From Escherichia coli (GTDB lineage Bacteria; Pseudomonadota; Gammaproteobacteria; Enterobacterales; Enterobacteriaceae): DNA of 64,000 bases. The DNA lies in the NCBI RefSeq assembly GCF_041248615.1, contig NZ_CP158426.1. One strand, 5' to 3'. The first letter of the stretch is position 1. Every line of letters begins with the position of its first letter. Shown here piece after piece: positions 38,104-38,703 of the stretch. The notes beneath the pieces were generated by a model, which saw nothing but the letters and a program-made list of their open reading frames with translations, made no database searches and was not told the DNA's origin. Both the position numbers and the translations under genes were made by a program.

Positions 38104-38703
38104 TCAGAATTTATAACCAACACCCACGATGAACCCGTCAGTGCGCCAGTCGCCACTGCCGGAGCCTTCATAAGCGACATCAACGGCCACGGATTCGGTC
38201 GGGTTAAACTGCACGCCAGCCCCCCACGCCAGAGACGTGTTGCTGTGGCGACCATCATCACTTCCGGTCAGCACATCGTGCGTTTTCCCCTTGTTGTCAG
38301 TTACGCGGAGATAATCCCCGGAGAAAGTCGACACACGGCTGTAAGCCACACCCGCCATCGCATACGCGCTGAACCATTCATTCACGCGTACAGACGGCCC
38401 CGCCATCACGCTGAACCAGCGGTTACGCACGGAATCTTCATGCCAGCGGGTATCGCTGTAGTGCGTTTTTTGCTCATCCTCAGCATTGGCATAACTGAAG
38501 GACGTAATCAGCCCCAGCGTGTCCGTAAACTCATAACGGTATTTCACGTTAATCCCGTTCAGATTATCGCTGCCGGGAGCGTTCGTACGGGCATGAAGAT
38601 ACCCTGCGCTCAGTGTGGTCTGCTGCTCAGACGCCCATGCAGGCGCACCGGATACGGCCAGACAGATGGCTGCGGACAAAATGGCTGCATAAACTTTACG
38701 CAT
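38104..38703 (-). CDS. lom: Outer membrane protein Lom (Ail/OmpX family)
   Basis: 199-aa ORF with signal peptide MRKVYAAILSAAICLAVSGAPAWA, beta-barrel pattern ending ...GVGYKF; between J and stf as in lambda. Confidence 0.8.
   Translation of the reverse strand: MRKVYAAILSAAICLAVSGAPAWASEQQTTLSAGYLHARTNAPGSDNLNGINVKYRYEFTDTLGLITSFSYANAEDEQKTHYSDTRWHEDSVRNRWFSVMAGPSVRVNEWFSAYAMAGVAYSRVSTFSGDYLRVTDNKGKTHDVLTGSDDGRHSNTSLAWGAGVQFNPTESVAVDVAYEGSGSGDWRTDGFIVGVGYKF

Follow-up and report, generated by a model that had tools for sequence, protein, structure and literature searches.

The gene for Lom of phage lambda (NP_040601, 206 aa; PDB 9wso chain C) has J on one side and the side tail fibre gene on the other, and it is arranged as a hairpin, a ribosome-binding site, the ORF and a further hairpin. 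The same order of J, lom and tail fibre gene is found in P-EibA (E. coli ECOR-9), where Lom (AAF63231) has a length of 199 aa. A gene annotated as Lom also adjoins J in long-tailed lambdoid phages of the Stx-converting/EHEC type (JLK-2012, YYZ-2008 and vB_EcoS-640R1). Lom proteins share a Pfam family with Ail of Yersinia (3qra/3qrc), OmpX of E. coli (1qj8/1qj9) and Rck, which is encoded on a Salmonella virulence plasmid; these three are eight-stranded barrels with strands protruding from the surface, a fold that is also predicted for Lom. Ail, Rck and PagC are described as virulence-type surface proteins, and complement resistance is a property of Rck.

We analysed a window of 64,000 nucleotides from Escherichia coli (contig NZ_CP158426.1), in which an earlier note had proposed that a lambdoid prophage carries a Lom-family outer membrane protein. 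The surroundings include lambda-type genes for head and tail, lysis, Q and integrase, in agreement with the proposed prophage setting. The lom copy in the window is an ordinary copy of a gene that was known and annotated before.

The lom gene and its predicted product

The lom coding sequence occupies 38104..38703 on the minus strand and encodes 199 aa plus a stop codon from an ATG start (RefSeq WP_032354288.1). The same gene in NRZ14408 (NZ_LT599825.1) bears the RefSeq name "Ail/Lom family outer membrane beta-barrel protein". A Shine-Dalgarno sequence, GAGAGG (38709..38714, minus strand), could be read 5 nt 5′ of the ATG and was unchanged across 80 related loci. The strand of the gene was absent from the earlier note; the ORF list gives it as minus. 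An overlapping ORF of 177 codons on the plus strand (38245..38778) was taken to be a by-product of the coding strand.

The earlier note had assigned the product to the Lom family, and the profile searches bear this out. Pfam PF06316 (Ail_Lom) covered residues 1–199 of 199 with 414.8 bits, the cut-off being 23 (E 6.7e-125), and PHROG 108, 'Lom outer membrane protein', was also matched over 1–199 of 199 (E 2.6e-109). The identity to lambda Lom was 45% (E 6e-57). The similarity to lambda Lom and Ail that was expected on alignment was also found in a sequence search of the PDB, which returned lambda Lom (9wso) at E 1e-48 and both OmpX and Ail at approximately 6e-19. Judged by the PDB E-values, PHROG and the NCBIfam cut-offs, lambda Lom is a nearer relative of the window Lom than are OmpX, Ail and Rck. 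The window Lom scored below the NCBIfam equivalog cut-offs of both Rck (112 versus 258 bits) and OmpX (98 versus 176 bits). Identities to Ail, OmpX and Rck were 30–38% (∼34% for Rck). The window Lom also differs from these proteins in having longer strand 3–4 and strand 5–6 hairpins, in its length (199 aa compared with precursors of 171–185 aa) and in being prophage-borne rather than chromosomal or plasmid-borne.

Codons 1–24 (38632..38703, minus strand) read as a signal peptide, MRKVYAAILSAAICLAVSGAPAWA, followed by SEQQ. The predicted peptide has a basic N-terminus (MRK) and a hydrophobic core, and its A-W-A motif places the expected cleavage between AWA and SEQ. Residue 3 of mature OmpX aligned to Lom residue 29 and residue 2 of mature Ail to Lom residue 26. 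In the AlphaFold2 model (pLDDT 88), a helix at residues 2–18 with low pLDDT precedes strand 1, and eight strands follow this signal helix, so that an eight-stranded antiparallel beta-barrel is predicted for Lom. The best Foldseek matches to the model were Ail (3qra/3qrc) and OmpX (1qj9), with TM scores of 0.76–0.85 by target length and a probability of 1.00. The C-terminus, GVGYKF, corresponds to the aromatic outer-membrane insertion signal (G-Y-x-F) with a terminal phenylalanine; G194, G196, Y197 and F199 were invariant in a 16-sequence alignment that included OmpX and Rck. We consider it very likely that the ORF is an intact lom gene encoding a Sec-exported, eight-stranded outer-membrane barrel of the Ail/Lom/OmpX family, and that it is an accessory gene of the lambdoid prophage rather than a part of the virion.

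Comparison with lambda, P-EibA and Stx-type phages

The window lom occupies the same slot as lambda lom and has the same hairpin, ribosome-binding site, ORF and hairpin architecture. The two genes share their 3′ ends and the 30 nt directly after the stop codon, and the last 30 residues of the two proteins (…DxAYEGSGSGDWRTDGFIVGVGYKF) are nearly identical. Most of the divergence lies outside this conserved C-terminal segment: the window Lom has 7 fewer residues, a difference that falls mainly in the first surface loop, and the long strand 5–6 hairpin is largely changed.

The window and P-EibA have in common the 199-aa length of Lom, a J end that is 89% identical, and the order J, lom, an orf-401-like fibre gene, an orf-191A-like gene and a gene for a YadA-type surface protein. 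The Lom proteins themselves differ, being 72% identical, with changes clustered in the signal peptide and the strand 5–6 hairpin. The Stx-converting/EHEC phages named above were 93–97% identical to the window in DNA sequence across lom and its flanks. Clusters of 199-aa Lom proteins have thousands of members at 83–94% identity, and on this sequence comparison the window Lom is of the 199-aa type that is common in EHEC/Stx-type prophages.

Neighbouring genes and decay of the prophage

The earlier note had also placed the gene between J and the tail fibre genes, and the domains on either side agree with this: Ig_GpJ_C lies on one side, and phage_tail_N with collagen repeats on the other. The first of these belongs to a 3′ fragment of J that contains the receptor-binding C-terminus (38771..39424, minus strand; the ORF is listed as 38771..39484). 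This fragment corresponds to positions 940–1163 of NCBIfam lambda_TipJ and is 52% identical to the C-terminus of lambda J. On the other side is the side tail fibre gene (36233..38038, minus strand; Pfam phage_tail_N and Collagen, PHROG 366 tail fibre). The tail fibre assembly slot that follows holds a DUF4376 gene (35643..36218, minus strand; PHROG 1141); in P-EibA this slot is that of orf-191A. The order of J C-terminus, lom and tail fibre N-terminus was seen in 77 of the 80 related loci, and the other three end beside lom.

The 5′ part of J lies further upstream (40748..43999, minus strand), where lambda_TipJ was matched with 1948 bits together with Pfam J domains. The two parts are separated by IS1414, an element of the IS256 family identified by its transposase families and RefSeq name (1315 bp, 39425..40739, minus strand), a break in the adjoining gene that went unmentioned in the first reading. 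The element has 30-nt imperfect terminal inverted repeats and is flanked by an 8-bp target duplication, ACAAACAA, at 39417–39424 and 40740–40747; within it, at 39836–39952, is an intact astA (EAST1) ORF of 38 aa. When IS1414 was removed in silico, a single J ORF of 1301 aa was obtained. The prophage is probably defective, since J is split by this insertion.

Elsewhere the prophage contains a second IS1414 and, in the early region, an IS1; a Mu-like phage sits inside the neighbouring YadA-like adhesin gene. For the insertions examined (IS1414 in J and the Mu-like phage), an exact target duplication was present in each case and the interrupted ORF was restored on removal; the insertions look recent. 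The lom gene has stayed intact amid the decay of the surrounding prophage. We considered whether the YadA-like neighbour is an eib gene and rejected this identification, because only its slot and anchor resemble EibA; the passenger has no significant similarity to EibA, which sets the window apart from P-EibA.

Hairpins flanking lom

The earlier note had credited lom with its own terminator. A hairpin, CCCGCA-AUUU-UGCGGG followed by the tail AUUAUUUUUU, was found by consensus scan after the stop codon (38050..38075, stem-loop 38075..38060, minus strand), between lom and the ATG of the tail fibre gene. Its folding energy is modest (−10.7 kcal/mol, z −2.3), 6 of 200 shuffled sequences being as good, and the scan gave 6 terminator-like sites in the region versus 4.8 ± 2.0 by chance, which is not above expectation. 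The hairpin is credible as the terminator of lom because it occupies the same site as a stronger hairpin in lambda and because hairpins are present at the matching position in most of the 80 related loci.

A second terminator-like hairpin, GGGCGCCA-GAAA-UGGCGCCU followed by a U-run, was found by the same scan between the J stop codon and lom (38725..38752, stem-loop 38752..38733, minus strand). It folds with −15.7 kcal/mol (z −3.3), and none of 200 shuffles was as good. In the relatives, 99% of the alignment cells in the stem were paired, and two of the eight pairs had changed on both sides in a compensatory manner.

From the upstream U-run to the lom ATG there are just 21 nt, and a consensus scan of the lom strand between IS1414 and lom gave no sigma-70-like site. 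Together, these leave expression in the lysogen without explanation. A candidate promoter seen by eye, CAGGCA-18-TATAAC, overlaps the J stop codon and was rejected, as transcription would begin at the upstream hairpin.

This bears on the reading that lom is a silent passenger, intact by chance in a dead prophage and neither expressed nor useful here. The lack of a promoter in the consensus scan, a strong upstream hairpin that would stop transcripts from IS1414 or J, and the damage to the prophage region (IS1414 in J, the IS1, the second IS1414 and the nearby Mu-like phage) are all in keeping with such a state. We nevertheless consider it very unlikely, given that the full-length ORF, ribosome-binding site, signal peptide and barrel motifs are all intact and that homologues are expressed in other lysogens (PMC3342100). 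Moreover, the insertions look recent, and the intactness of lom therefore says little either way.

lom as a present-or-absent cassette

The prophage of E. coli LH50-c (NZ_CP100500.1) lacks exactly 38049–38724 and is otherwise 96.7% identical. In LH50-c, J, the same upstream hairpin and the tail fibre gene are directly joined. The missing segment defines a lom cassette of 676 bp (38049..38724, minus strand), comprising the ribosome-binding site, the ORF and the downstream hairpin, whose edges are the U-runs of the two terminator-like hairpins. The cassette carries a terminator but has no room for a promoter of its own. A search of 5426 complete E. coli genomes turned up the lom-less junction in 336.

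In these respects the cassette resembles the morons defined in HK97 and HK022 (PMC3594210): it is an additional, self-contained stretch of DNA that some of a set of near-identical phages carry and others lack, it has its own terminator (weak in the window copy) and it lies inside the tail gene region. It differs from morons in leaving no space for its own promoter and in a base composition like that of its neighbours. No G+C anomaly was seen in lom, which has 55.8% compared with 51–57% for J, 56% for the tail fibre gene and 54.5% for the late region.

Carriage of lom is widespread. Depending on the count, lom-like DNA was present in 4087–4697 of the 5426 complete E. coli genomes, i.e. about three quarters or more overall and ∼87% by the 4697 count, with a median of 2 copies per genome and with K-12-type commensals among the carriers. 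Among the complete genomes, NRZ14408 alone had a 100% match to the window allele, and the next best match was 98.2%.

Expression and possible roles of Lom

The lambda prophage expresses Lom, and the level of the protein climbs sharply in late infection (Liu 2013, as cited in PMC12366544), and lom of phi24B is expressed equally in lysogens and induced cells (PMC3342100). By analogy with these two phages, the window lom would probably be read within the Q-antiterminated late transcript, with the hairpins ignored, and show weak expression before induction of the lysogen as well; Lom would then insert into the outer membrane and display its long beta-hairpins on the cell surface.

The sharp late rise cited for lambda could also suggest that Lom has a role in lysis, as could the frequent joint transfer of lom with the distant holin gene between lambdoid phages (PMC9836094). 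Such a role is extremely improbable. No direct evidence speaks for it, the phi24B gene is expressed independently of induction, and the absence of lom from near-identical prophages means that it cannot be needed for lysis.

A phage-centred function is suggested by observations on lambda. By sequence matches, PDB entry 9wso contains lambda Lom together with the maltoporin LamB, and no J chain; a literature search found no paper describing the entry, so that the contact between Lom and LamB is known just from the presence of both sequences. Overexpressed Lom protects strongly against lambda-vir, though not against T7, whereas the native level in lambda lysogens does not stop lambda-vir (PMC12366544). 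We prefer the reading that Lom would bind an outer-membrane protein of the host that serves as a phage receptor and so cut adsorption of phages of its own kind, although we put this at somewhat below an even chance. Binding of this type would serve exclusion, or would shield newly released phages from cells already infected and from debris. The receptor evidence is that for lambda Lom, to which the window Lom is 45% identical, and this counts against the reading here, as does the failure of native Lom to stop lambda-vir. Also against it, Lom homologues have been reported in Stx phages with short tails, which lack J and use BamA (PMC12502783), and PADLOC defence models gave no match for Lom or two neighbouring proteins.

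We compared the type of Lom with the type of the J receptor-binding domain in 151 loci, taken as the best matches to two queries. Among these loci, the mutual information was 0.95 bits, compared with 0.29 bits for the tail fibre N-terminus, and other J types were present in 12 of the 98 loci with window-type Lom. The coupling is strong and speaks for the receptor reading, but we rejected it as decisive proof of receptor masking; it could reflect plain linkage, as only 67 bp separate the two genes, the choice of loci was biased and there are exceptions. The J receptor-binding end in the window is 41% identical to that of lambda, 40% to h434 and 56% to phi330, for which the receptors are LamB, OmpC and OmpC, respectively (PMC12502783). 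At 41% identity the receptor may differ from that of lambda, and assigning a receptor from these three phages was rejected, as identities of 40–56% are too distant. The phages vB_EcoS-640R1 and PhiR47_1 have the J receptor-binding type of the window, at 90–94% identity. A more specific proposal, which we think unlikely, is that the 199-aa Lom is a self-exclusion factor matched to the adjacent J end. It would bind the J receptor, as lambda Lom seems to bind LamB, and block adsorption of sibling phages. What survives here would then be a domesticated protein of the cell surface that acts against phages, encoded by a prophage unable to build a working tail tip.

The earlier note had linked the family to lysogenic conversion. 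Here the Lom loops would bind host-cell or serum components, leading to adhesion, invasion or complement resistance. For the window allele, adhesion and serum resistance would follow from its family only, through the Pfam family common to Ail and Rck and a predicted fold nearest to Ail, including the complex with a heparin analogue (3qrc). Lambda lom has been reported to help E. coli K-12 adhere to buccal epithelial cells (Vica Pacheco 1997, as cited in PMC12366544, PMC3342100 and PMC3594210). Nearby prophage slots hold surface and virulence cargo, namely the YadA-like adhesin gene and astA. Against this, Lom lies far below the NCBIfam cut-offs for Rck and OmpX, and its identity to Rck is low. 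In lambda lysogens, serum resistance (Barondess and Beckwith 1990, cited in PMC3342100) is reported to be due to bor, not lom. The presence of lom in ∼87% of genomes, commensals included, is also more readily reconciled with a phage-centred role than with one specific to a pathotype. A role in conversion is possible but rather doubtful; recent evidence (9wso and the block to lambda-vir) leans to adsorption blocking as the role of Lom. The adhesion or complement reading and the receptor reading are compatible, and the one does not exclude the other.

The gene itself carries little weight, being annotated in RefSeq, a member of a textbook family and present in most E. coli genomes. The clean, promoterless 676-bp cassette and the unpublished Lom–LamB entry make the role of Lom testable, and natural prophage pairs that differ in lom carriage could separate receptor masking from host adhesion. 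In the window, lom, the YadA-like adhesin gene and the IS1414-borne astA form a small surface cargo region that has been reshaped by mobile elements.

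Identity of the lom gene

The open reading frame at 38104-38703 on the minus strand has 199 codons, with an ATG start and the stop codon included in the coordinates; a ribosome-binding site, GAGAGG, lies 5 nt 5′ of the ATG. The product matches the Pfam Ail_Lom profile (PF06316) over positions 1-199 of 199 with 414.8 bits (curated cut-off 23), and PHROG 108 ("Lom outer membrane protein") from end to end. RefSeq names the gene "Ail/Lom family outer membrane beta-barrel protein" (WP_032354288.1) on the E. coli NRZ14408 chromosome (NZ_LT599825.1), which is 100% identical over the window. 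An earlier note had claimed a Lom-family protein here, and these matches bear it out. Alignment with lambda Lom and Ail, which the note put forward as a check, also showed similarity. By BLASTP the protein is 45% identical to lambda Lom over 187 residues (E 6e-57); among PDB sequences lambda Lom ranks first (9wso chain C, E 1e-48), ahead of OmpX and Ail (E about 6e-19). With the NCBIfam equivalog models it scored 112 bits for Rck (cut-off 258) and 98 bits for OmpX (cut-off 176). As these scores are far under both cut-offs, Rck and OmpX are ruled out as its identity, and the protein is a family member that is neither. Judged by its sequence, the gene belongs to the Ail/Lom family and, inside it, to the Lom group, and its product is of the 199-aa type often found in long-tailed Stx-converting and other EHEC-type lambdoid phages.

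Clusters of related proteins run to thousands of members. The DNA of JLK-2012, YYZ-2008 and vB_EcoS-640R1 is 93-97% identical to the window lom, and the Lom of prophage P-EibA is 72% identical. Among complete assemblies the exact allele (100%) was found only in NRZ14408, the next best being 98.2%. The gene is not new: it is already annotated, abundant and in its textbook position.

Predicted structure of Lom

The N-terminus (MRKVYAAILSAAICLAVSGAPAWA, then SEQQ) resembles a Sec signal peptide with an A-x-A cleavage site, and the mature chains of OmpX and Ail begin to align at residues 26-29. An AlphaFold2 model built from a 16-sequence alignment (mean pLDDT 88) has an N-terminal helix of low confidence and then eight predicted strands, at residues 29-40, 47-58, 63-81, 86-106, 111-135, 141-166, 172-181 and 188-198. 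When this model was compared with the PDB using Foldseek, Ail (3qra, 3qrc) and OmpX (1qj9) came out on top, with probability 1.00 and TM scores of 0.76-0.85, normalised to target length. In the C-terminal GVGYKF, the residues G194, G196, Y197 and F199 are unchanged across the 16 sequences, OmpX and Rck included, and the final 30 residues are nearly the same in lambda Lom. Strands 3-4 and 5-6 are far shorter in OmpX; in the modelled Lom these long strands would protrude far above the membrane. Among 98 distinct close relatives, the variable parts are the signal peptide, the area of the first surface loop (39-49) and the outer half of strand 3 (73-81), and the alignment shows mosaic recombination between types in these segments.

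lom is a present-or-absent cassette between J and the tail fibre gene

On the minus strand, lom is preceded by the tail-tip gene J (5′ part 43999-40748, 3′ part 39424-38771) and followed by a tail fibre gene (38038-36233), which encodes a prophage tail fibre N-terminal domain and many collagen repeats, a DUF4376 gene in the tail fibre assembly slot (36218-35643) and a truncated YadA-like gene (34917-34009). Tail, head, terminase and lysis genes of lambda type lie 5′ of J; Q, the early region and an integrase adjoining yjjG belong to the same prophage outside the window. With this gene set, the description as a lambdoid prophage is correct. The order J, lom, tail fibre is that of lambda and P-EibA. 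It recurs in 77 of the best 80 IMG/VR matches (Lom 93-98% identical), which have the J C-terminus and tail fibre N-terminus either side of lom; in the other 3 the locus stops beside lom. The observation of the earlier note, which had placed lom in this slot, is thus confirmed, and its interpretation is supported.

Most of the 601-aa tail fibre protein (36233-38038) is made up of collagen-like G-x-y repeats, with a non-collagen domain separating them into two blocks. The N-terminal domain is a minority form: it shares only about 50-60% identity with its counterpart in nearly all of the best 80 loci with near-identical lom, so a recombination point lies between lom and the fibre gene. A 177-codon frame on the plus strand (38245-38778) runs antisense over nearly all of lom and is most likely a by-product of coding-strand composition.

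Two hairpins flank lom. The downstream one (38075-38060, minus strand), followed by AUUAUUUUUU, folds at -10.7 kcal/mol (z -2.3), and 6 of 200 shuffles were equally good; the region as a whole has no excess of terminator-like sites (6 versus 4.8 +/- 2.0 by chance). The 30 nt after the lom stop codon are common to the window, lambda and most relatives, and the hairpin comes next. The lambda hairpin is much stronger (-18.1 kcal/mol), as is that of most relatives, and because these hold the same position the window hairpin is credible. The gene's "own terminator", as the earlier note had it, is therefore modest when taken alone and conserved in position.

The upstream hairpin (38752-38733, minus strand), between the J stop codon and lom and with a U6 run, is stronger than the downstream one (-15.7 kcal/mol; matched by 0 of 200 shuffles); the lambda hairpin at this place is weaker. 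Across 13 distinct variants of the region, 99% of cells are paired. Both sides have changed in two of the eight pairs (G-C via G-U to A-U; C-G to U-A), one variant has lost a base on each side of the stem and another has an inverted loop. The covariation score was reached by 15 of 500 shuffles.

In E. coli LH50-c (NZ_CP100500.1), a relative prophage lacks lom, with 96.7% identity across J, the tail fibre gene and the DUF4376 gene. There the J stop codon is followed by the same hairpin and U-run, two bases, and then the tail fibre gene's ribosome-binding site and ATG. In the alignment, a single 676-bp block differs (38049-38724), starting directly after the upstream U-run and ending in the U-rich tail of the downstream hairpin. 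Of 5426 complete E. coli genomes, 336 have this lom-less junction and 4697 have lom-like DNA, which covers at least 80% of the lom length in 4087, with a median of two copies and a maximum of 14 per genome.

The cassette contains the ribosome-binding site, the open reading frame and the hairpin, with only 21 nt before the ATG, and a promoter scan of the lom strand upstream of lom gave no site. The sole promoter-like site nearby on this strand, ATGACA-16-GATTAT (38055-38082), overlaps the downstream hairpin and is directed into the tail fibre gene; it has the minimum score (9/12), and such sites are not in excess in the region (6 versus 4.3 +/- 2.3 by chance). Compared with a moron as defined in PMC3594210, the cassette shares the "extra DNA" and "own terminator", and differs in having no promoter of its own and a G+C content (55.8%) equal to that of its neighbours. 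lom is a present-or-absent cassette with a terminator and without its own promoter. The gene is intact, encodes a predicted exported eight-stranded barrel, lies in a conserved accessory slot and is dispensable for the phage.

Expression and possible function

In lambda, the Q-modified late transcript passes hairpins. By analogy, during lytic growth such a transcript would read through the hairpins around lom, so that Lom would be made along with the tail genes. Expression as a late gene agrees with the sharp rise of Lom late in infection described in PMC12366544 and PMC9836094. PMC12366544 also places Lom among the few proteins produced by a repressed lambda prophage, and the orthologue in Stx phage phi24B has similar expression in lysogens and induced cells (PMC3342100). 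No start point for a lysogen lom transcript was located in the window.

Classically, Lom is read as an adhesion or serum resistance factor like Ail and Rck. PMC12366544 and PMC3594210, citing Vica Pacheco 1997, have lambda lom favouring adhesion to buccal cells. The relatives Ail and Rck confer adhesion or complement resistance, and by this analogy such a role for the window Lom is possible, though less likely than not.

LamB is the lambda receptor. PDB entry 9wso holds lambda Lom and maltoporin LamB, in the same LamB construct as the LamB-J complex 8xcj; J is not among the chains of 9wso. Overexpression of Lom gave strong protection against lambda-vir and none against T7, and the authors proposed that Lom prevents non-productive adsorption (PMC12366544). 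Lom would, on this reading, bind the receptor and thereby block phage adsorption. We tentatively, and only by a narrow margin, prefer receptor binding to adhesion or serum resistance, because of this molecular support and because the gene is in most E. coli genomes whatever their pathotype. The two readings are compatible with each other, and we infer a function for the window lom at the family level only.

Association between the Lom type and the receptor-binding end of J was examined in 160 IMG/VR loci, the best 80 for each of two queries. Lom sequences were grouped into clusters with an 85% identity threshold, and a 75% threshold served for both the J receptor-binding end (the upstream ORF's last 140 residues) and the tail fibre N-terminus. 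The window-type Lom (199 aa) accompanied the window J-end type in 86 loci and three others in 12, the main cluster of a 207-aa Lom type accompanied one J type in 38 of 40, and lambda Lom was found only with the lambda-type J end (5 of 5). In these best-80-per-query loci, mutual information with the Lom type was 0.95 bits for the J end and 0.29 bits for the tail fibre N-terminus, which offers little diversity for association. The association is compatible with co-adaptation; we do not count it as support, because linkage of genes 67 bp apart in a sample picked by similarity predicts the same. The window J end is 41% identical to that of lambda (LamB), 40% to h434 and 56% to phi330, the latter two using OmpC (PMC12502783). 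Lom homologues are also reported in short-tailed Stx phages that use BamA (PMC12502783), which conflicts with a simple Lom-J pairing.

State of the prophage

J is split by IS1414 (40739-39425, minus strand; 1315 bp, 30-nt imperfect terminal inverted repeats, 8-bp target duplication ACAAACAA). With J in this state, the prophage is unable to form a normal tail tip. In silico excision of the element together with one duplication copy gave a single 1301-codon J frame. The restored protein (40748-43999 plus 38771-39424) exceeds lambda J (1132 aa) by about 170 residues and has, ahead of its C-terminal domain, a tandem duplication of a coiled-coil-like segment of ~55 residues (AKKSGEQS[L/M]AIA[K/E]VDRKVD…EIRQTVSRSTEENSRQIAQ[V/I]RQYVDDK…). 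Within the IS1414 transposase gene (element at 39425-40739), in another frame and on the lom strand, is an intact 38-codon frame (39836-39952), which we take to be astA, the EAST1 heat-stable enterotoxin gene; it has no annotation in the RefSeq record. astA is known to be embedded in IS1414. A second IS1414, near the integrase (record 4626030-4627238), and an IS1 lie in the same prophage outside the window.

The YadA-like trimeric autotransporter gene is interrupted by a 37,649-bp Mu-like (transposable) prophage, which occupies window 1-34049; its junction and the target duplication lie at 34050-34055, and its other end is at L086 3941-3946. Its ends are TGAT…GATAAATG inverted repeats flanked by a TCTTCA duplication, and it encodes a DDE transposase, an ExeA/B-like protein, Gam, Mor, a contractile tail and an invertase; in contrast to Mu, its early and late genes run divergently from a central point. 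Its removal in silico gave a 412-codon YadA-like frame ending …WNAGVNFEF. The N-terminal part (34009-34917, minus strand) has three tandem units of ~33 residues (GD[A/S]LRGEIGGVYRDARAHTDSQVTAVRDELKAE…). In P-EibA this position is taken by eibA; the passenger part has no detectable similarity to EibA, and the likeness to Eib is confined to the C-terminal anchor. The insertions in the prophage look recent, and the intactness of lom despite them therefore says little about selection.

At the extreme end of the Mu-like element, after mor, a 217-aa frame (33028-33681, plus strand) has a match in PHROG 12870 (unknown function) alone; Pfam, NCBIfam and PADLOC models gave none. Several of its stretches, judged by eye, are hydrophobic and resemble membrane helices, and the frame might be cargo carried by the transposable phage.
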